Shown here: in pieces, positions 17,331 through 53,943 of the stretch
Layout of the letters: the number at the start of each line of letters is the position of its first letter
Numbering within the stretch: the first letter of the stretch is position 1
Source of the DNA: Erythrobacter sp. ANT-B3C2
GTDB lineage: Bacteria > Pseudomonadota > Alphaproteobacteria > Sphingomonadales > Sphingomonadaceae
Direction: 5' to 3'
Length of the DNA stretch: 64,000 bases
NCBI GenBank assembly: GCA_001683845.1
Contig: LXQI01000011.1
Coordinates: 13,790-77,789 of the forward strand
Notes under the pieces: model-generated
What the model was told of the DNA's origin: nothing
Database searches by the model: none
What the model saw: only the letters and a program-made list of their open reading frames with translations
Program-made: the position numbers and the translations under genes

Positions 17331-17789
17331 GTGCCCCTCGACCGACCCTTCGATATCGTGAAGTACCACAATCCCGAATGCGGCACCTCGCGCAATGCGC
17401 TGGCGATGATCCGCCATGCCGGGTTCGAGCCGCATGTGGTGGAATATCTGAAAACACCGCCCTCCCGCGCCATGCTCGAGAGCCTGGTCGCGCGGGCCGG
17501 CATCGCTCCTCGCGCGCTGCTGCGCGAGAAGGGCACGCCCTTTGCTGAGTTGGGCCTCGACGATCCTGCCCTAAGCGACGACGCGCTGATCGATGCAATG
17601 GTGGAGCACCCGATCCTTATGAACCGGCCGCTGGTGGTCTCGCCGCTGGGCGTGAAGCTGTGCCGGCCTTCGGAGGAGGTGCTCGGCCTGCTGCCCGAGG
17701 GCCAGCTCGGCGCCTTCGCCAAAGAAGACGGCGAGCGGGTGATCGATGCCGAGGGGCGGCGGGTGGAGCCGGGCGCGGCGCACCCATGA
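17331..17789 (+). CDS. arsC: arsenate reductase (glutaredoxin-coupled ArsC family)
   Basis: Catalytic motif [16 protein letters not shown] at 17331 lies 6 nt after AGGAGA; the track start at 17304 is a TTG. The stop overlaps the acr3 ATG (ATGA). Confidence 0.88.
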
Positions 17790-18856
17790 AGGGCGGTGTC
17801 GCGGCGCCGGCTGTTGCGTCATCCCCGCTGGGGCTGTTCGAGCGGCTGTTGTCCGTCTGGGTGGCTCTGGCGATTGTCTTTGGAATCGCGCTGGGGCTGG
17901 TTGCGCCGGGGCTGGTGGCGGCCGTGGCGGGGCTGGAATATGCCTCGGTTAATCTCGTCGTGGCGGTGCTGATCTGGGCGATGATCTACCCGATGATGGT
18001 CGGCGTCGATTTCGCGAGCGTGCGCGGGATCGGCCGCAAGCCCAAGGGGCTGGTGATCACGCTGGTGGTGAACTGGCTGATCAAGCCCTTCACCATGGCG
18101 GCGCTGGCGGTGTTGTTCTTCGATTACATCTATTCCGGCCTGCTCTCCGAGACCCAAGCCGACCAGTACATTGCCGGGCTGATCCTGCTGGGCGCGGCGC
18201 CGTGCACGGCGATGGTGTTCGTCTGGTCGCAGATGACCAAGGGCGATCCGGCCTACACGCTGGTGCAGGTGGCGGTGAACGACCTTGTGATGATCGTCGC
18301 CTTCGCCCCCATCGTGGCGCTGTTGCTCGGGGTGACCGACATCGAAGTGCCGTGGGAGACGCTGCTACTATCGGTGGGGCTCTACGTGGTGGTGCCGCTG
18401 GTGGCCGGCATGCTGACCCGGCGGCAGGTGATCGCCAGCCACGGCGGGAGCGAGGCGGCGGTGGAAGCTTTCACGGCGCGGCTGAAGCCATGGTCGATCA
18501 TTGGCCTGCTGGCAACGGTGGTGCTGCTGTTCGCGCTGCAGGCGGAGACGATCGTGCGCAGCCCGCTGCTGATCGTTCTGATTGCGATCCCGATCATCAT
18601 CCAATCCTATGGCATTTTCGCTCTCTCCTATGCCGCCGCCTGGGCCTGGAAGGTGCCGCACAATATCGCCGCGCCCTGCGCGATGATCGGTACGTCCAAC
18701 TTCTTCGAACTGGCGGTGGCGGTGGCGATTGGCCTGTTCGGCCTTTCGAGCGGGGCGGCGCTGGCAACGGTTGTCGGCGTGCTGGTGGAGGTGCCGGTGA
18801 TGCTCTCGCTGGTCGCATTCGCCAACCGTACGCGCCGTCACTTTCCGGCGTCGTAG
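17786..18856 (+). CDS. acr3: ACR3-family arsenite efflux transporter
   Basis: 356 aa and about 10 TM segments. ACR3 signatures [16 protein letters not shown] and [12 protein letters not shown]. Confidence 0.9.
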
Positions 18857-26750: not shown

Positions 26751-28208
<1,458 letters not shown>

Positions 28209-28210
28209 TC

Positions 28211-28855
28211 ATGGCCGATACGACCAACACAACCAACCCGGGTGCTGCGACCACGCCGGTGAGCCCGGTGAATCCTGGGTCATCGTTCGGGAATACCGCG
28301 GGGACCGGCATGGGGAGCAGCCTTGGTGGGCTGCAGAGCATGGACAGCAGCGGCATGGATGCGGGATCTTCCGAACATACCGGCGAGGCGCGCTCGCATT
28401 TTTCGGCGGCTCTGGCGGAGGCCAAGGCCGGCGCGGCGGCGCTGAGCGAGGAGGCTCGGTTACGCGCCAGTTCGTACAAGGAGCAGGCGCGGAGCGCGGC
28501 GACCGAATATGGCGAGCAGGCCCGCACCACCGGCAGCGAGTTTTCGACCGAGGCGCGAACTCGTGCGAGCGAACTCGCCGTGGAAGGCAAGTCCAAGCTG
28601 AGTGAAGGTTTGAGCGGATTGAGCCGGGTGGTGGCGGACAATGCCCACACGGTCGACGACAATTTGGGCGCGGAGTACGGCGATTACGTTCGCACCGCCT
28701 CGAAGTCGTTGCAGGAGGTGGCCACGCGGTTCGACGAGCGTTCGCTGGAGGAACTGGGTGAGGATGTGCGCCAATTCGTGCGCAGCAGCCCGGGCACGGC
28801 GATCGGTCTCGCGGCGATGACGGGCTATCTGTTCGCTCGCATCCTGCGCCGATAG
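28211..28855 (+). CDS. DUF883 (ElaB/YqjD-like) C-tail-anchored stress protein with Gly/Ser/Thr-rich N-terminus
   Basis: 214 aa. It has a low-complexity N-terminus, a long Ala/Glu/Arg helical region, and the C-terminal motif VRSSPGTAIGLAAMTGYLFARILRR typical of DUF883. Confidence 0.75.
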   Translation: MADTTNTTNPGAATTPVSPVNPGSSFGNTAGTGMGSSLGGLQSMDSSGMDAGSSEHTGEARSHFSAALAEAKAGAAALSEEARLRASSYKEQARSAATEYGEQARTTGSEFSTEARTRASELAVEGKSKLSEGLSGLSRVVADNAHTVDDNLGAEYGDYVRTASKSLQEVATRFDERSLEELGEDVRQFVRSSPGTAIGLAAMTGYLFARILRR

Positions 28856-28867
28856 AGCGTGGTCGGG

Positions 28868-29329
28868 ATGAACGACCAGCTTGCCGCGCCGCCGCGGGGC
28901 GAGCCGGATTGGCGCGGCGAAGGCTCGCCTGAAGAGCCGTCCCTTCGCTATGAAGCGCCTGACGACCGGATGGTCGACGCCATCGAGGACCGTTCGCTGC
29001 TCGAGGATCTCGAGGCGCTGTATCATGACGGGCGGACTTATGCTTCGGCCGAGCTGGCGTTCCAGAAGACCCGCGCGTCGTTTGCTGCGGACCGGGCCAA
29101 GAAGGGGCTGGTATTTGGCGCGATCGGAGCGGGAGCAGCGCTGCTGGCGGCGATCGGGCTGACGGTGGGGCTGATCCTGACCCTCGCTACGCTTGTCGGG
29201 CCCTTGCTGGCGACCATCATCGTGGTGGCGGCGCTGCTGATCGTGGCGTGGCTGTGCGTCTCGAGGGCGACCAGCCGATTTGGCGAGCTGTCACGGGCGT
29301 TCGCGTCTAACGGGGAGAACCGGACATGA
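28868..29329 (+). CDS. YqjE-like / 'phage holin family' (holin-X, PF07332-like) two-TM membrane protein
   Basis: ATG at 28868 (MNDQ...); the track start is a GTG at 28859. Two adjacent TM helices (GLVFGAIGAGAALLAAIGLTVGLIL / GPLLATIIVVAALLIVAWLCV). Its stop overlaps the next ATG (ATGA). Confidence 0.7.
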   Translation: MNDQLAAPPRGEPDWRGEGSPEEPSLRYEAPDDRMVDAIEDRSLLEDLEALYHDGRTYASAELAFQKTRASFAADRAKKGLVFGAIGAGAALLAAIGLTVGLILTLATLVGPLLATIIVVAALLIVAWLCVSRATSRFGELSRAFASNGENRT

Positions 29330-29667
29330 GCGCGAGCGAACGGCAGCTGTCAGAGGACCGGGCCATGCGTGACGCGGCCCGGCGGCTGTTCAAGGCCGAT
29401 CTGGCGCTGGTGCGCGACGACCTTGCGACGCGAGGGCCAGGCGCGCGGGCGTCCGACCGGATTTCCGATGCAGCTCTCGACACGTTCGATGAGGCCGTGG
29501 GTTTCGCGGCCGAAAACCGGGGCAAGGTGGCCGGCGTGCTCGGGCTGATCGCGCTATGGTTCCTGCGCGGGCCGATCCTCGACGGATTGGGTGCACTGAC
29601 CGGGGCGAACGATGACGACGATGCTCGGGACGACCGACAGGACGAGGACGCGCGGGCCGGTCACTGA
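29326..29667 (+). CDS. hypothetical single-TM protein (third gene of the stress cluster)
   Basis: 113 aa with TM VAGVLGLIALWFL and an acidic tail. It is translationally coupled at both ends (ATGA, TGATG). Confidence 0.6.
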   Translation: MSASERQLSEDRAMRDAARRLFKADLALVRDDLATRGPGARASDRISDAALDTFDEAVGFAAENRGKVAGVLGLIALWFLRGPILDGLGALTGANDDDDARDDRQDEDARAGH

Positions 29668-47369: not shown

Positions 47370-48308
47370 CTAGACCGTGCCGAACTCCTGACTCCGCGCC
47401 GGCTGGCCGCCGGAGCCGCCATCGCGCACCTGCTGGTCGGCCTTGTCAATCAGCTCGTCCTTCTTGTCGAGCGCCTGTTCGGCGACTTGATGGGCGGTAT
47501 CCTTCACCTGATCCCCGACCTGACGCGCCTTGCTTTGCGCCTGGTCGAGGGCCTGTGATCCCATCTTGCCGAACTGCTCCTCCTCGGTGCGGGTAACGGG
47601 CAGGAGGCTGCCGGCCACTGCGCCGACCAGCGCCGCTGCCAGCCCGCCGAGCAGCGGGCTTTCGCGATAGAGGCTGCCAGCCTTCGAGGCCATGCGCGAA
47701 GCACCATCGGACGCGTCTTGCGCCAGATTGCCGGCGCCCTGATAGGCATCGTGCGCCAGATTGCGGGCATATTCGGCGGCATCCTCGCGGCGCTGGCGCA
47801 TGCCGTCAGTCGCTTCATCCAGCCGCTGGCGGAAGCTGGTCTCGTCCTCGTCATGACGCGGCTCGACCATCAGGTAGCTGGCACGTGCATGATCACGCCG
47901 GCGCCGCCAGGCGTCCCAATCCTCCTCGGGGCGGTGCTCGAGCGTGCCCATGTGGCTCGCATAGCCGCGGTGGAAATCATGATCCGGATGAGCGCTGCTG
48001 CCCTTGGAACTGTCATCGCTGCTGCCGAGGAAGCCGGGCTTGAGCGATGAGGCGCGGGCGTCGCTGTCGCTGACCAGCCACAGGCCGCCAATCGCGATCA
48101 TGCCGAGGGCAATCGGATTGCGGCGCGCCTGATCGAGCAGGTAGCGCCCGTCAACGCCATTGGCGTCGCTCTTGTCGAGCAGCGTGTTCATGATGTTGCG
48201 AGGGGTCAACTGCTCCTCGAGCTTGTTGACGGTGTCGCTCATATCCTGCTGGGTCGTACGGATATCGCGCTCGATCTCGGCGGGATTGCGGGTGTCGTTA
48301 GCGTTCAT
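47370..48308 (-). CDS. DUF3618-like membrane stress protein
   Basis: 312 aa. N-terminus NPAEIERDIRTTQQDMSDTVNKLEEQL (DUF3618-like), TM PIALGMIAIGGLWLV, and a second anchor-like segment SPLLGGLAAALVGAVAGSLLP. Confidence 0.7.
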   Translation of the reverse strand: MNANDTRNPAEIERDIRTTQQDMSDTVNKLEEQLTPRNIMNTLLDKSDANGVDGRYLLDQARRNPIALGMIAIGGLWLVSDSDARASSLKPGFLGSSDDSSKGSSAHPDHDFHRGYASHMGTLEHRPEEDWDAWRRRRDHARASYLMVEPRHDEDETSFRQRLDEATDGMRQRREDAAEYARNLAHDAYQGAGNLAQDASDGASRMASKAGSLYRESPLLGGLAAALVGAVAGSLLPVTRTEEEQFGKMGSQALDQAQSKARQVGDQVKDTAHQVAEQALDKKDELIDKADQQVRDGGSGGQPARSQEFGTV

Positions 48309-48759
48309 TGGTGCCTCCGGGGCTCGTCATGTGGCCGGTCACTGCGGCGGGGGTGTCCTCGGCCGTGCGAATTGATCGCTCGGGCTTGAGGTTGGTGGCG
48401 GTCATTTTCTTGGTGGCGCTGGAATACATGATGTAGGCGACGATCGCTGCGATACCGCCCACGATCAGAACGCCAAGGCCATCGTTGTTGAGGGCGATGC
48501 CGAGCCATAGACCGAGGCCCATCAGCGTCACGCCGAGCGCGGCAATGGCAACCACCGCAGCGCTGACCAGTGCGGTAATGGCCTCCTTGAGATCCGTGAT
48601 GGATTCTCGCATCTCGGCCTGGACCAGGCTGACTTGTTCCTGCGCCAGATGCGCGCCCTGCTGGGTCAGGCGGCTGAGCAGATCGCCGAGACCCTCGCTG
48701 GGCTCGGCGGTCTCGGTTCGGACGACCCGCGGCCCTTCATGGAAGGTCTGGTCGTTCAT
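48298..48759 (-). CDS. YqjE-like / 'phage holin family' (holin-X, PF07332-like) two-TM membrane protein
   Basis: 153 aa starting MNDQ, like the 28868 paralogue. Two TM helices. Its ATG overlaps the upstream stop (ATGA). Confidence 0.7.
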   Translation of the reverse strand: MNDQTFHEGPRVVRTETAEPSEGLGDLLSRLTQQGAHLAQEQVSLVQAEMRESITDLKEAITALVSAAVVAIAALGVTLMGLGLWLGIALNNDGLGVLIVGGIAAIVAYIMYSSATKKMTATNLKPERSIRTAEDTPAAVTGHMTSPGGTNER

Positions 48760-49427
48760 CGGCCCGCCCCTCCGGTTTCGCCACTGCCGCCAACTGGTGT
48801 GGATCCAGCCGTCGTAGAGCCGGTCGAGCCTGCGCCGTAGCCGCTCGTGCCCACGCCTCCGGTACCACCATAGCCGCTGCCGGACGTGGAGCCGGCTTCC
48901 CTGGCGTAGCTGGTGCCGCCTGTGCTACCGGATCCGCTCATACCGCTTGATCCGGACTGGCCGCTCAGAGCTATCCGGCTGCCGGGCGCATTCGCACGGT
49001 CCGCATCATAGCGATGGTCGTACTTGTACTCGGCGCCGGCGCGAAAGAACCGCGCGGCGGCGAAGCCCGCCGCAGCCGAGGCGGCAAGGAAGGTCGTGGG
49101 GTGTTGGCGCGCATAGCGCGACAGGTCGCCGGCCAGTTGGTCGGCACTGCGGCCCTCCATGCTGCTTGCGAACTGCTCGATGCTGCTGGCGGTCTGCTTG
49201 AACGCAGCGCTGAGCCATTGCGGAGCATCGCCATCCTGTTCCATTTCCTTCGCCGCACGATCGAGCGCCGAGGCAGTGGACTTAGCCGCCCCGGTCGCCT
49301 GGTCCTTGCGGGTATCGGCTTCCTGCCGCGCGCGATCCGCAGCGGCATCGCCGAGGCGGCTCGCATCCTGCGACAATTCGTTCTTGATCGTCGAGGCGTC
49401 GGTCGCCGAAGTGTCTTGTGGCGTCAT
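48756..49427 (-). CDS. hypothetical DUF883-like membrane protein with Gly/Ser/Thr/Tyr-rich C-terminal tail
   Basis: 223 aa with GAAGGAGAG before the ATG. Helical N-domain, anchor motif YARQHPTTFLAASAAAGFAAARFF, then a low-complexity tail of about 70 aa (SGSSGMSGSGSTGGTSY...GYGGTGGVGTSGYGAGSTGS). Confidence 0.7.
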   Translation of the reverse strand: MTPQDTSATDASTIKNELSQDASRLGDAAADRARQEADTRKDQATGAAKSTASALDRAAKEMEQDGDAPQWLSAAFKQTASSIEQFASSMEGRSADQLAGDLSRYARQHPTTFLAASAAAGFAAARFFRAGAEYKYDHRYDADRANAPGSRIALSGQSGSSGMSGSGSTGGTSYAREAGSTSGSGYGGTGGVGTSGYGAGSTGSTTAGSTPVGGSGETGGAGR

Positions 49428-50645: not shown

Positions 50646-51651
50646 CGGGCAGCTCGGTAGCGAACAGCCGCAGCTGCCCGATCGTGGGGCCACGTACGCC
50701 GGTCAAGCGAGCGAGCCGCAGTCCCGTTTCCACCCGCACGGGATGGAGCAGAGCATCGCCGAACTCGATGATCGCCTCTGCGCAGCGTTCGAGAAAGTGC
50801 GCCCGGCTCCTGGCATTCAGGGTCGAGAGGGGGGTGAAGGCCTGCGCCGCCAGCGCAGGCCCGTTCGCCCTCCGAACCGCTAGCCGCGCTCAATGGCGGT
50901 TCGAGCGCGACACCTGTAGCGGGACCGTAAGCCGTGAAACGCTCCTGCGTGCGCTCCCGCGCTAGGCGGCGGCTGAATATCTCTCCGGTCACTTCATGCC
51001 GACCCCCTCTCGCCGCGATTCAGACATTTGGCCCCAAAGCGCAAGGCGCAATGTGGGGGACGAGACCATCCCGCACCGGCGCGCACCAATGGCCTATGGC
51101 ACACCATCGATGAGAATTGCGCGGAGTCCGAGATGGGGGTTGATCACGCGATCGGTGGCGGCGGTCTCCGCTTTACTAAGCAGTTCCTGACAAGATGTTC
51201 GGGCTCGCTGAGGAATGTCCCGAATTTCGGAGACTGCCCGCATGCCCTAGCAGGACATATAGCGATGGGGCCGGATGGATGAGCGCAGTTTCTGGCCCAC
51301 GGTCGAATCTGGTTCAATCGTATCGGTGGAGTGACAGGTCCACTAGCCCGGTTTGCAGAAGGATCGCCTGCAGCAGGCAGCTCCCTCCCCGGCTCATCGA
51401 TCAAGAGTACTCCATCGTCTCTCGGGAGCCGTCTGCCATCAACTGACAGCGTCCGGAGTTCGCTTCGTCGCTTCCCGATTCCGCGGGCGCGCAATAGGTG
51501 TAATTATCGTTAATGCACCAGCAAGGGATCTGCCGAAGCGATTGATCCAACGCTGGAATGGACGCGCAAACTTCTCAAGGTTATGAAATAGGCACGGCGC
51601 GGAGAGCGTCGCCTGACGGGTGGGTCGGAGCTTACTAAGGGGGGCTCGTTT

Positions 51652-52422
51652 ATGCTGCTGGATTTGAGTAATCCGCCTATGCGCGGAGTGTACGGTCGCG
51701 CCAATCGTTTCGAGCCCTGCAAATCGGTTCTTTACCGGAGAAAAGGCCCTCACGGGGAGTTTACGATCAAGGTTGCCGAGTGTGACGATGATCGAGAGGC
51801 CGCCAAGGCAGTCGTCAATCGTCTTTATGGATGGCGCGGCTACGGCGAACATCACCAATTGGCCGAGCGGGCGAGTTGCACGACCTTCATTGCCTCCTTC
51901 AACAGCGAGGTGGTGGGCACTCTGACGCTCACCGTCGACTCGCCCAAGCGATTGAATGTCGACGAGACCTTTGTTGACGAGCTAATCCACATCCGATCCG
52001 ATCATGAAGCAAGTTTGTGCGAGCTGACGAAGTTCGCGTTCGATCCAACCGTCGGTTCCCAGCCCATGTTGGCCGCACTGTTCCATGTCATCTTCGCTTA
52101 CGGCACACAGATCTATGACTGCACCGATCTTCTGATCGAAGTGAACCCCCGCCACGTGCGTTTCTATGAGACCATGCTGGATTTCTCCCGCTTGGGCCCA
52201 TTGCGCACCAATGCATCCGTCAATGCGCCATCGCAGCTGCTTCAGCTGAGGGTTGCCGAAATCGAGCGGCGGATCGCGCTGTTCGCCGGTCGCGATCATG
52301 GAGGCCGTTCGCTCTACCCGCACTTTCTCGGCAAAGTGGAGGAGCGCGCGGTACGGCGACGGATCGAGAATGCGACCGGCAGGACCAGGCCGAGCCGACC
52401 CGCGATCAGACAGGCGGCTTGA
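51652..52422 (+). CDS. FeeM/NasY-type long-chain N-acyl amino acid synthase-like GNAT-fold protein (PEP-CTERM/exosortase-associated acyltransferase family, TIGR03694-like)
   Basis: 256 aa with AAGGGGGG 8 nt before the ATG. Layout FTIKVAE..REAAKAVVNRLYGWRGY, VGTLTLTVDS, CELTKFAFDP and LLIEVNPRHVRFYETMLDF matches my recollection of this family. G+C is in the mid-50s % in hand-counted stretches. Confidence 0.65.
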   Translation: MLLDLSNPPMRGVYGRANRFEPCKSVLYRRKGPHGEFTIKVAECDDDREAAKAVVNRLYGWRGYGEHHQLAERASCTTFIASFNSEVVGTLTLTVDSPKRLNVDETFVDELIHIRSDHEASLCELTKFAFDPTVGSQPMLAALFHVIFAYGTQIYDCTDLLIEVNPRHVRFYETMLDFSRLGPLRTNASVNAPSQLLQLRVAEIERRIALFAGRDHGGRSLYPHFLGKVEERAVRRRIENATGRTRPSRPAIRQAA

Positions 52423-52454
52423 GTTAGCTGCCGCATTGCCCTGTTCACAAGAAA

Positions 52455-52481
52455 GGGGGCAGCGGGATCGCCGCTGCCCCC
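52455..52481. terminator. bidirectional intrinsic terminator between convergent genes
   Basis: 11-bp perfect stem gggggcagcgg / ccgctgccccc with a 5-nt loop. It is flanked by aagaaa on one side and tcattct on the other, giving a T-rich run on both strands. Confidence 0.65.
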
Positions 52482-52503
52482 TCATTCTGGTGTGGAAAGC
52501 CGC

Positions 52504-53100
52504 TTAGGCGTAGCTTACCCGCATAGTATCCTGGCGACGGCGGCGCATCACGAAACCGACGGCACCGAAACCGAGAACCATCATCGCCCAAGTGGCAGGC
52601 TCAGGGATTGGGCTCACCGCCGGAGCGAAGGTCAGGTTTCCGCCATAGGAGCCCTGCCCGCGCGACAGATAGGTCACCGATAGGGTGTTCTGAACGTTCA
52701 TCATGATCGGCAAGTTGGCCAGACCGCCACTTTCCATAAACCCGAAGTTCGTCATCGTCGGCACGACAAACGTTCCACTACCGTTGCTGAACGTGACGTT
52801 CAGGAAATCGAGGTCGGTCGCACCACCGGTAAGGCCAGCAAGGATCGTGGTGATCGAACCGCTTCCGAGACCGGTCTGGGGAATGGTGAATAGGAAATTA
52901 TCGGTAAATTCGCCCATGCCGATACCCGCACGACCGAAGGTCGCCGAGATCGGGCCGTCGAAGATGTCATCGCTCTCGACGCTGAAGAAGGCGCCGGGCA
53001 CATTCGTCGGATTGTCGACGAAGATGTTGTTCTGGGCCTGGACTGCCGGGGCAGCGCAGACTGCGGCCGTTGCGGCAATAAGCTTAAGGAGTGATCTCAT
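52504..53100 (-). CDS. FxDxF-family PEP-CTERM (PEPxxWA-CTERM variant) sorting-domain protein
   Basis: 198 aa from the ATG at 53100. Signal peptide MRSLLKLIAATAAVCAAPAVQAQ and FTDNF (FxDxF) motif in GEFTDNFLFTIP. The C-terminus is PIPEPATWAMMVLGFGAVGFVMRRRR, that is PEPxxWA, a TM segment and an Arg cluster. Confidence 0.85.
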   Translation of the reverse strand: MRSLLKLIAATAAVCAAPAVQAQNNIFVDNPTNVPGAFFSVESDDIFDGPISATFGRAGIGMGEFTDNFLFTIPQTGLGSGSITTILAGLTGGATDLDFLNVTFSNGSGTFVVPTMTNFGFMESGGLANLPIMMNVQNTLSVTYLSRGQGSYGGNLTFAPAVSPIPEPATWAMMVLGFGAVGFVMRRRRQDTMRVSYA

Positions 53101-53438
53101 ATGAGTGACCTTCCGAGTCGGGGTTGAACCATCCAGAGGCTGGCTAGGCGATTGCACCTACAACCACAACAAGAAAACAGTAACTACCGTAGCAGCTTAA
53201 AGATGTGTCCCAAACGGGAACAATATCGGAATGGCCGGAACCGCTGGGGCTTCACCGAAGGAAAGCACGCGCCAGCTTCGTTCCCTGCCGGCGCGGAACT
53301 GCGGCAACATTCCGGCTGGTGATGCTGGATATGCGAGATCACACCACAAGCAACACTCCACAGACCGTGGCTTCTGGTATGGAACAAGCCGCGAAGAGCC
53401 TGCACGCTCATACTGGCCCCATGGTAAGCACACGAAAA

Positions 53439-53468
53439 GGGCGGCAGGATCAAGCCCTGCCGCCTTTT
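53439..53468. terminator. intrinsic terminator downstream of the 76-aa microprotein gene
   Basis: Stem ggcggcagg / cctgccgcc with a 7-nt loop. It is flanked by cgaaaag and ttttt, so there is a U-tract on either strand. Confidence 0.6.
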
Positions 53469-53490
53469 TCGTCAATCCTTAAAACCCGGG

Positions 53491-53721
53491 TTACGGGCTC
53501 GTCGGGAGGTCCTCGTCATTGTCAGCGAGGATCACGCCAATCACGCCGGCCGCAATCAGCAGCGCAACAATAATGCCGAAACCGCTGGAGCCGCCAAGCT
53601 CCTCGCTTTCGGCAATCGCCGAACCCATCCGCAACTCAGCCCCAGGAGCCGCGATTGCAGCAGTCGATCCGAAGATCAGCGCCGACGTCGCCGCGGCGAC
53701 GAACGCTTTACGAATAACCAT
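53491..53721 (-). CDS. secreted, C-tail-anchored microprotein (hypothetical)
   Basis: 76 aa from the ATG at 53721, after GGAAGGG. Signal peptide ...STAAIAAP, a short mature segment, TM GFGIIVALLIAAGVIGVIL, and an acidic tail DNDEDLPTSP. It has its own terminator. Confidence 0.5.
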   Translation of the reverse strand: MVIRKAFVAAATSALIFGSTAAIAAPGAELRMGSAIAESEELGGSSGFGIIVALLIAAGVIGVILADNDEDLPTSP

Positions 53722-53943
53722 ATGATGCCCTTCCGTTACTTCCAACCGTCGCATATCACGACCTATTCCGCCGTCAAGCACGATCTCGCCTCGTATCCAC
53801 AGCCTGTGGAGCCTCGGTATCGGAGATGCGCGCCAACAGCCCCTTCGGTTTGCAACCCTTCAGCCGCATACTGGCGGCCGGAGCGAGCAATCCTGTGCAC
53901 TTGGCGGTTTTGCCGAGCGCATGAATGGCTTACCCGCTAATCT

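Follow-up and report, generated by a model that had tools for sequence, protein, structure and literature searches.

A 64,000-nucleotide stretch of the Erythrobacter sp. ANT-B3C2 genome (GenBank assembly GCA_001683845.1, contig LXQI01000011.1, positions 13,790–77,789), hereafter the window, carries a gene for a FeeM-family N-acyltransferase (the enzyme) facing a gene for a small FxDxF-family PEPxxWA-CTERM surface protein (the cargo). The two-gene unit is conserved across Sphingomonadales and is probably a module of the exosortase V (XrtV) protein-sorting system.

PEP-CTERM proteins are processed by exosortases after their export. Proteins and exosortases alike are widespread in environmental bacteria, with ties to the biology of biofilms, flocs and exopolysaccharide. 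Compared with the large, complex classical loci, the present module is simple: one enzyme and one small cargo recur at more than 60 loci in Sphingomonadales genomes and metagenome-assembled genomes (MAGs). Carriers include the cultured Sphingomonas elodea ATCC 31461 and Tsuneonella amylolytica.

Gene pair and its features

The window is ordinary chromosome that includes sdhB, carAB, dnaG, rpoD, tgt, ribBA/ribH, recG and mfd. Its RpoD is 86–91% identical to RpoD of Croceibacterium, Porphyrobacter and Altererythrobacter, which places the bacterium in the Erythrobacteraceae (Sphingomonadales). Two facing genes had been predicted from the sequence alone, and both lie at the predicted coordinates. 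The locus has the following features:

51652–52422, + strand: FeeM-family N-acyltransferase gene, 256 aa (Pfam PF21926, profile and structure matches)
52021–52023, + strand: codon of Glu124 in LCELTKFAFD (hidden Markov model [HMM] alignment to the Glu of 2G0B KLAEVVQFAMD)
about 52454–52482, both strands: G+C-rich hairpin, probable bidirectional terminator (sequence, folding, terminator-like match on the − strand)
52504–53100, − strand: FxDxF-family PEPxxWA-CTERM surface protein gene, 198 aa (NF038126, NF035944)
53035–53100, − strand: signal peptide, residues 1–22, MRSLLKLIAATAAVCAAPAVQA (read from the sequence; helix modelled at residues 2–15)
52894–52908, − strand: FxDxF motif F65-T-D67-N-F69 (FTDNF, residues 65–69; conservation in 72 homologues)
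52507–52608, − strand: PEPxxWA-CTERM signal (PEPATWA, transmembrane helix, RRRR; residues 165–188) plus tail (NF035944)
about 51.0–53.9 kb (51000–53900), no strand: lower-G+C stretch, 56–61% (composition profile)

The enzyme sequence includes LCELTKFAFDP and LIEVNPRHVRFYETMLDF, and its start codon is backed by homologues beginning MLLDLS or MLLDC. Pfam model PF21926 (FeeM) matched residues 51–199 over model positions 2–157 of 158 (E = 1.7e-41; 142.1 bits, cut-off 27) and was the sole match of the Pfam scan, in which the autoinducer synthase model (Autoind_synth) gave none. The profile match to FeeM structure 2G0B had an E-value of 6e-19. An AlphaFold model (mean predicted local distance difference test score, pLDDT, 88.9) predicts a FeeM-like fold of the Gcn5-related N-acetyltransferase (GNAT) type. 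When it was searched against the PDB with Foldseek, the six best matches were FeeM chains of 2G0B (E down to 6e-13), with a template-modelling score (TM-score) of 0.80 for the best match and 0.78–0.83 on the target over the six chains. GNAT acetyltransferases and the acyl-homoserine lactone synthase LasI (1RO5, TM-score 0.55) followed. The original prediction of a FeeM/NasY-type protein is borne out by these matches.

The 2G0B entry is titled N-acyl amino acid synthase, FeeM being an N-acyl tyrosine synthase. FeeM came from soil environmental DNA and belongs to a biosynthetic fee gene cluster and not to a sorting system; FeeM-type enzymes use acyl-acyl carrier protein (acyl-ACP) as donor. FeeM and the window enzyme share a Pfam family, a fold, an aligned active-site Glu and 26–29% identity. 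Unlike FeeM, the window enzyme has an N-terminal extension of about 45 residues, in which a beta-hairpin is modelled with confidence. Its C-terminal RSLYPHF motif and helix are likewise absent from FeeM, and betaproteobacterial copies share this C-terminal part. Among 74 homologues, Glu124 is at least 90% conserved and Cys123 is invariant. The FeeM residue aligned with Glu124 is reportedly the catalytic base proposed by Van Wagoner and Clardy (2006). Neither a signal peptide nor a transmembrane segment was found in the enzyme, which is predicted from its sequence to be cytoplasmic.

The enzyme had also been called TIGR03694-like. TIGR03694 matched neither the enzyme (E <= 1) nor ten relatives that included PrsT-adjacent betaproteobacterial copies (E <= 0.01), and this is weak negative evidence because there was no positive control that the library holds the model. 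At E <= 1e-30 the enzyme family comprises 544 clusters. NCBIfam has no curated model for the family, which gave just a weak match to the N-terminus of the fusion protein PRK14852; the RefSeq label of a homologue is 'acetyltransferase'.

The cargo gene begins with an ATG preceded by GGAAGG. As predicted, its product is an FxDxF/PEPxxWA-CTERM protein: it scored above cut-off with NF038126 (FxDxF; 78.4 bits, cut-off 50), NF035944 (PEPxxWA-CTERM; 47.1 bits, cut-off 35, residues 165–188) and TIGR02595 (24.1 bits, cut-off 16). RefSeq names its homologues FxDxF family PEP-CTERM protein. Signal peptides of the same placement and character occur across 72 homologues, in which F71 is invariant and both F65 and D67 reach at least 90% conservation. 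A sorting-signal search of the window found no other PEP-CTERM open reading frame (ORF).

A 10-residue tail, QDTMRVSYA, follows RRRR at 52507–52536 (−). PEPxxWA-CTERM neighbours of the enzyme at other loci (L002–L081) carry such an extra tail, which extends past the 24-residue NCBIfam model and ends in V-x-[FY]-A(F) or AQ[LF]A. PEPxxWA proteins outside the FxDxF family have it too. By topology the tail should face the cytoplasm. The AlphaFold model of the cargo (pLDDT 89.5) predicts an N-terminal helix, a beta-sandwich and a C-terminal transmembrane helix. A fold search gave weak matches to carbohydrate-binding modules and an enterotoxin C-domain (TM-score 0.3–0.45), a hint from modelling that the cargo may bind glycans.

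The stop codons of the two genes are separated by 81 nt that contain the hairpin GGGGGCAGCGG-GATCG-CCGCTGCCCCC at 52455–52481. A bidirectional hairpin had been predicted here and stands, with a stem of 12–13 pairs where 11 had been claimed. Its folding z-scores are −3.6 on the + strand and −4.05 on the − strand, and 0/200 shuffles fold as well. The terminator-like match is on the − (cargo) strand, where the T-rich run CCCCTTTCTT follows the hairpin. It is probably a bidirectional terminator shared by both genes, which would be transcribed separately and, in the window, converge on it.

Conservation of the pair

The sample comprised 80 genomic loci encoding enzyme relatives, each with 10-kb flanks, nearly all from Sphingomonadales and a few from Betaproteobacteria. 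PEP-CTERM ORFs were found with an HMM of the sorting signal, and those within 1.5 kb of the enzyme gene were counted as partners. Partners were present at 64 of the 80 loci. The density of PEP-CTERM ORFs is 3.05 per 10 kb near the enzyme gene versus 0.14 in the flanks, a 22-fold difference, and 53/56 scanned neighbours match both NF038126 and NF035944. Clustering of ORFs within ±6 kb returned only two recurrent families, enzyme and cargo (81 and 62 loci, respectively); shadow ORFs of these two families aside, no third gene recurred there at more than 12 loci. In independent look-ups from the cargo side, a PF21926 gene faces two of three homologues in convergent orientation (those of Tsuneonella amylolytica and of a metagenome contig), and the third homologue is solo. 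Equal-sized contigs across the enzyme and cargo homologue lists suggest many more co-located pairs in metagenomes. The minimal cargo-plus-acyltransferase module that had been proposed from the window thus does travel together.

The enzyme and cargo diversify together. The same three loci (L002, L003 and L004) are nearest to the window for both proteins, in identical order. Pairwise identities of the two proteins are correlated (r = 0.62, Mantel 0/2000), to which shared organismal descent contributes. The 64 paired loci include 27 convergent, 24 divergent and 13 co-directional arrangements, with opposite strands in 51/64; the unit is therefore kept together without being an operon. Some loci have two cargo genes, and some genomes have several enzyme copies.

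L002, the nearest genomic relative for both window proteins, is a 6-kb contig binned in a Hoeflea sp. MAG (Rhizobiales). The other close relatives are all Sphingomonadales, and the Hoeflea label could reflect a binning error or a transfer. A partnerless copy of the enzyme gene in Sphingomonas quercus is frameshifted (L075, 9863–10853), and other partnerless enzyme copies lie beside insertion sequence (IS) or transposase genes in L021, L032 and L051; both findings are signs that extra copies turn over. A GTTAAC-containing word (TTGGTTAAC / ATCGTTAAC) occurs in up to 11 intergenic regions upstream of enzyme or cargo genes (e.g., L044, L045, L050, L056, L057 and L070). These loci may be close kin, so descent may explain the word with no shared operator. 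In S. paeninsulae, a gene for a Crp/Fnr regulator lies between the enzyme and cargo genes.

Sigma-54 promoters (TGGCACG-N4-TTGCT, perfect or with one mismatch) precede the cargo gene in L064, L065, L066 and L068, at a fixed position 44–50 bp before the FxDxF cargo start. These loci belong to one Sphingomonas subclade, and such promoters are absent at most other loci. Sigma-54 promoter matches in the window did not exceed chance, and none with intact GG/GC lies upstream of the cargo gene.

Association with exosortase V

As originally predicted, the window encodes no exosortase; its two ORFs rich in transmembrane segments are ACR3 and LolCE. PEP-CTERM cargo genes away from their exosortase are ordinary. 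The further claim that the pair is detached from any XrtA/EpsH holds within the window and fails among relatives, where pairs lie beside exosortase V, its accessory protein, an EpsD-like isomerase and exopolysaccharide (EPS) genes.

In L088, the small gene beside the cargo encodes the XrtV sorting system accessory protein (NF045607; 104.8 bits, cut-off 35). The NF045607 accessory core was also found in L023, where some 350 bp separate it from the enzyme gene, and in L036, L003 and L071. Exosortase V itself (NF035943, cut-off 313) scored 326 bits in L003 and 374 bits in L071; the L036 protein, at 307.8 bits, is narrowly below. Genes near XrtV in these relatives encode an EpsD-like isomerase, a priming sugar transferase and a chain-length determinant. 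With an XrtV HMM, 7/80 loci proved to have an exosortase at most 10 kb away from the enzyme gene; by our estimate, chance would yield about 0.5 such loci if each genome of about 3.5 Mb had a single copy. L003 is from Croceibacterium ferulae, a fairly close relative with an RpoD 86% identical to that of the window. It holds the second-nearest homologue of each window protein, and its gene order is XrtV, accessory, EpsD-like, enzyme, cargo.

Because pairs in relatives lie beside XrtV, accessory and EPS genes, we read the window pair as a detached satellite copy of the XrtV system. The identity of the two proteins and their membership in this system, taken jointly, are highly probable.

Related enzymes in Betaproteobacteria

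In Sulfuricella and Rugamonas, the enzyme gene adjoins the gene for PrsT, the XrtA/PEP-CTERM tetratricopeptide repeat protein (TIGR02917; 995 and 808 bits), and is often tandem-duplicated. A ThiF-like gene follows the enzyme gene in both genera, and Sulfuricella also has an Acg-like oxidoreductase gene. The order in Duganella is prsT, enzyme, then a true PepA gene (NF033554; 177 bits, cut-off 80).

Tandem FeeM-like genes followed by a ThiF-like gene occupy L052 (9815–13559), L074 (9812–13729) and L077 (8895–11504). The ThiF-like genes were scanned in L052 and L077 (PRK08223), both of which have PrsT beside these genes, and the Acg-like flavin mononucleotide oxidoreductase was scanned in L052; for L074, gene identities were read off the ORF translations only. 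The 989-aa model PRK14852 aligns with the FeeM-like genes at its N-terminus and with the ThiF-like genes at model positions of about 311–591, and so looks like a fusion of at least these two. The tandem FeeM-like, ThiF-like and Acg-like genes suggest a longer, uncharacterised pathway.

Two candidate relationships of the cargo were rejected. Homology of FxDxF proteins and PepA was dismissed since the profile–profile alignment covers only the 25-residue sorting signal (probability 28%), and identification of the window cargo as PepA failed with NF033554 (25.6 bits versus a cut-off of 80).

PepA and FxDxF proteins share only the sorting signal, so the enzyme follows PEP-CTERM cargo as a class and is tied to no single fold. 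That it accompanies unrelated cargo folds in two exosortase types argues for a role in the sorting or anchoring pathway.

The PepA/PrsT system of Aquincola and Zoogloea resembles the present pair in that a small Sec-exported PEP-CTERM protein works with exopolysaccharide (PMC9850573). Aquincola PepA is an RpoN-dependent flocculation protein whose gene lies upstream of prsT; it raises bound exopolysaccharide at the expense of the soluble form, and several processed forms appear (PMC9850573). Two further likenesses were found: Duganella PepA is encoded directly 3′ of an enzyme gene of the same family, beside prsT, and RpoN dependence of pepA is matched by sigma-54 promoters on the cargo in one sphingomonad subclade. 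Unlike PepA, the window cargo has a signal of the PEPxxWA (XrtV) type, not the XrtA type, and its gene has no sigma-54 promoter. The PepA paper makes no mention of an acyltransferase (PMC9850573).

The adjacency of enzyme and cargo could be meaningless, with the enzyme making a membrane aminolipid for general envelope physiology. General membrane roles are described for N-acyl amino acid lipids (review PMC11631085), and 16/80 loci are partnerless. Against the 22-fold local enrichment, an association seen from both the enzyme and the cargo side, and its span over two proteobacterial classes, unrelated cargo folds and different exosortase types, chance proximity is the least credible of the explanations weighed here.

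Base composition and origin

The enzyme and cargo genes each have 58.5% G+C, and the rest of the window has 67.3%, a difference of 8.8 points. The original prediction was right that both fall below their flanks and too low in placing them in the mid-50s. The low-G+C stretch contains the pair, long non-coding flanks and one orphan small ORF.

The pair had further been described as horizontally acquired. The low-G+C stretch of 3 kb might be a recently acquired island inserted between tgt and the M48 peptidase gene, in which case adjacency would reflect shared mobility. Its composition fits such an origin, as do the long non-coding flanks, the small ORF for which other loci offer no relatives, the surroundings of the pair, which vary from genome to genome, and synteny with a relative that stops just upstream of M48. 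Several partnerless enzyme copies also lie beside IS elements. Lower G+C is, however, a family-wide trait of the pair: G+C falls short of that of the flanks for the enzyme gene at 56/59 loci (mean difference −4.7 points) and for the cargo gene at 50/59 (mean difference −3.5 points). The flanks of the window pair gave no Pfam match of any kind, integrase, transposase and IS remnants included. No tRNA was found near the pair and no meaningful direct repeats flank it, so that atypical composition was the only island-like property found. Plasmid records carrying the enzyme family number only two, neither mobilisable, and mobility alone cannot account for the recurrence beside XrtV, PrsT and PepA. 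A recent island is unlikely on this evidence, and the claim of horizontal acquisition was not upheld. Relocation over evolutionary time is likely, given the varied surroundings of the pair and the loss of synteny with one relative immediately upstream of M48. A test of the M48 neighbourhood in metagenomes yielded one usable locus (L092), in which M48 and a flavin reductase are kept and the genes upstream are unrelated.

Proposed pathway and alternatives

We read the pair as a module of the XrtV/PEPxxWA-CTERM system in which a cytoplasmic FeeM-type enzyme accompanies a secreted beta-sandwich cargo and the enzyme product acts in the common pathway; we put the probability of this reading at about 0.6. 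The cargo would be exported via Sec by its signal peptide, and its C-terminal PEPxxWA helix would keep it in the inner membrane so that RRRR and the tail stay on the cytoplasmic side. Cleavage and onward transfer would then fall to an exosortase V whose gene lies at another site in the genome. By analogy with FeeM, the enzyme would N-acylate an amino acid with acyl-ACP, and its amphiphilic product would work in the pathway of the cargo. The action of an N-acyl amino acid on this cargo, first proposed from the sequence alone, is likewise conjectural. The likeliest role for such a product would be to attach or retain the processed cargo at the cell envelope or in the exopolysaccharide matrix; a narrower version makes the product a lipid partner or acceptor in the exosortase reaction. 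Any specific mode of action is offered tentatively and is doubtful in its details.

Several observations weigh against this reading. The two genes are mostly on opposite strands, which weakens the case for co-expression. The enzyme is cytoplasmic and the mature cargo extracytoplasmic, so the product must cross or sit in the membrane, and gene neighbourhoods of the loci hold no transporter conserved near the pair. TIGR03694, the curated exosortase-associated acyltransferase model, fails to match the enzyme. An XrtV HMM built from three exosortase V sequences gave a best E-value of 0.75 against the six-frame translation of the 64 kb, and the XrtV accessory protein is absent from the window, the small ORF at 53491–53781 included. 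The partnerless loci (16/80) include that of the closest relative of the window enzyme (P0002, L082; 66% identity), and a close relative of the cargo (L086, P0129) is solo in the same metagenome sample. A neighbouring partner is therefore not obligatory. L082 and L086 are separate large contigs of JGI sample 3300025875 and may be a pair split within one genome.

The enzyme could instead be a signal synthase, whose diffusible N-acyl amino acid controls expression of the cargo and matrix genes and has no part in sorting or anchoring. LuxI-type synthases have a related GNAT-like fold and use acyl-ACP, and LasI is among the structural matches. Opposite strands with separate promoters, the usual arrangement here, are common in regulator–target pairs; the Crp/Fnr gene in S. 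paeninsulae and the sigma-54 promoters of one subclade, which imply that cargo genes are regulated, point the same way. LasI is nevertheless a far weaker match than FeeM (0.55 versus 0.80), the Pfam autoinducer model does not match, no LuxR-type gene lies near the pair, and no receptor or regulator gene recurs beside it. Several pairs per genome and tandem cargo copies would be odd for a signalling circuit, and the link to PrsT and XrtV implicates the sorting machinery as such. A signalling role is unlikely, slightly more so than recent acquisition of the locus.

Direct protein acylation would have the enzyme modify the cargo, either on the cytoplasmic tail after RRRR or as a precursor before export. 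The nearly one-to-one pairing and the co-diversification suggest specificity between enzyme and cargo, the conserved tail faces the compartment where the enzyme is, and GNAT-fold protein N-acyltransferases are among the structural matches. The characterised FeeM, by contrast, acylates a free amino acid (2G0B molecule name). A conserved Lys and a free alpha-amine are both missing from the tail, which exosortase cleavage would take off; tails of the same type occur on PEPxxWA proteins that do not adjoin the enzyme, and the enzyme also pairs with PepA, which is without this tail. Direct acylation is very improbable.

In the archaeosortase ArtA/PGF-CTERM and rhombosortase/GlyGly-CTERM systems, a tripartite signal (motif, transmembrane helix and basic cluster) is removed by a membrane enzyme and the new C-terminus becomes lipid-linked. 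To our knowledge, no acceptor has been identified for any exosortase. By analogy with these systems, whose tripartite C-terminal signal resembles that of PEP-CTERM, the enzyme might make a dedicated lipid acceptor, an N-acyl amino acid with a free amine of, for example, the N-acyl lysine or ornithine type. This lipid would receive the cleaved C-terminus of the cargo from exosortase V, and the pair would be a cassette of a protein plus its own anchor that shares the exosortase. ArtA and rhombosortase, however, use bulk membrane lipids and no product of a dedicated neighbouring synthase. The two steps together are a long shot, somewhat less improbable than direct acylation. If true, they would identify the long-sought exosortase acceptor and account for the way in which N-acyl amino acid synthases accompany PEP-CTERM systems.

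Relation to described systems

N-acyl amino acid synthase genes were linked to PEP-CTERM/exosortase systems by Craig et al. (2011), as cited in PMC7293339, PMC11072679 and PMC4897644. As that link is represented in the citing papers, the window enzyme agrees with it in that its relatives sit in XrtV/EPS loci and by PrsT, and differs in that it matches Pfam FeeM while TIGR03694, run with no positive control, does not match. The 2011 synthases are represented as sitting once in a large exosortase/EPS cluster; the present type is coupled to one cargo, is often multi-copy and is of the XrtV/PEPxxWA flavour. A Methylomonas mutant without such an enzyme loses a polysaccharide band (PMC11072679). The stieleriacine cluster of Stieleria maiorica (PMC7293339) is a planctomycete, multi-gene biosynthetic cluster whose products are N-acyl tyrosines, and it gives no evidence of a conserved one-to-one module.

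The synthase–exosortase link is thus already known (2011), and the cargo family, sorting signal and exosortase V are curated by NCBI. A literature search on FxDxF, PEPxxWA and XrtV gave only unrelated eukaryotic FxDxF motifs. The literature yielded no description of a FeeM-type enzyme tied to one cargo gene as a dispersed, sometimes multi-copy cassette, of the membership of such a cassette in the XrtV system, or of the parallel enzyme–PepA arrangement beside PrsT. The cargo-coupled, often multi-copy XrtV form appears undescribed. The module offers a minimal, genetically tractable handle on the old question of what exosortase-linked synthases do, and its 544-cluster enzyme family, annotated just as 'acetyltransferase' or 'hypothetical', could be given a context-based name.

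Other features of the window

Between tgt and the enzyme gene, about 960 bp (50694–51651; 56–65% G+C) hold no convincing gene. This interval gave no Rfam or Pfam match and no similarity to upstream regions of other loci, and conservation of the flanking non-coding DNA of the pair was looked for in the other loci and not found. An Rfam scan of 50.5–54.1 kb returned sub-threshold matches only, on a terminator hairpin. The small ORF at 53491–53781 (−) encodes 76 aa from MVIRK, with a signal-like N-terminus and a C-terminal transmembrane segment. It had no family match and no relative in any other locus fetched; a terminator-like hairpin of its own (53440–53464) is followed by a T-run.

Farther away, an ACR3 arsenite efflux gene (17660–18856, +; TIGR00832, 399 bits) has small neighbouring ORFs and probably belongs to an ars cluster. 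Two alike three-gene clusters, at 28142–29667 (+) and 47370–49427 (−), are probably paralogous operons for stress-type membrane proteins. Each includes a Phage_holin_3_6 (PF07332) membrane protein gene (28859–29329 and 48298–48759) flanked by genes for small proteins that are charged or Gly/Ser-rich.

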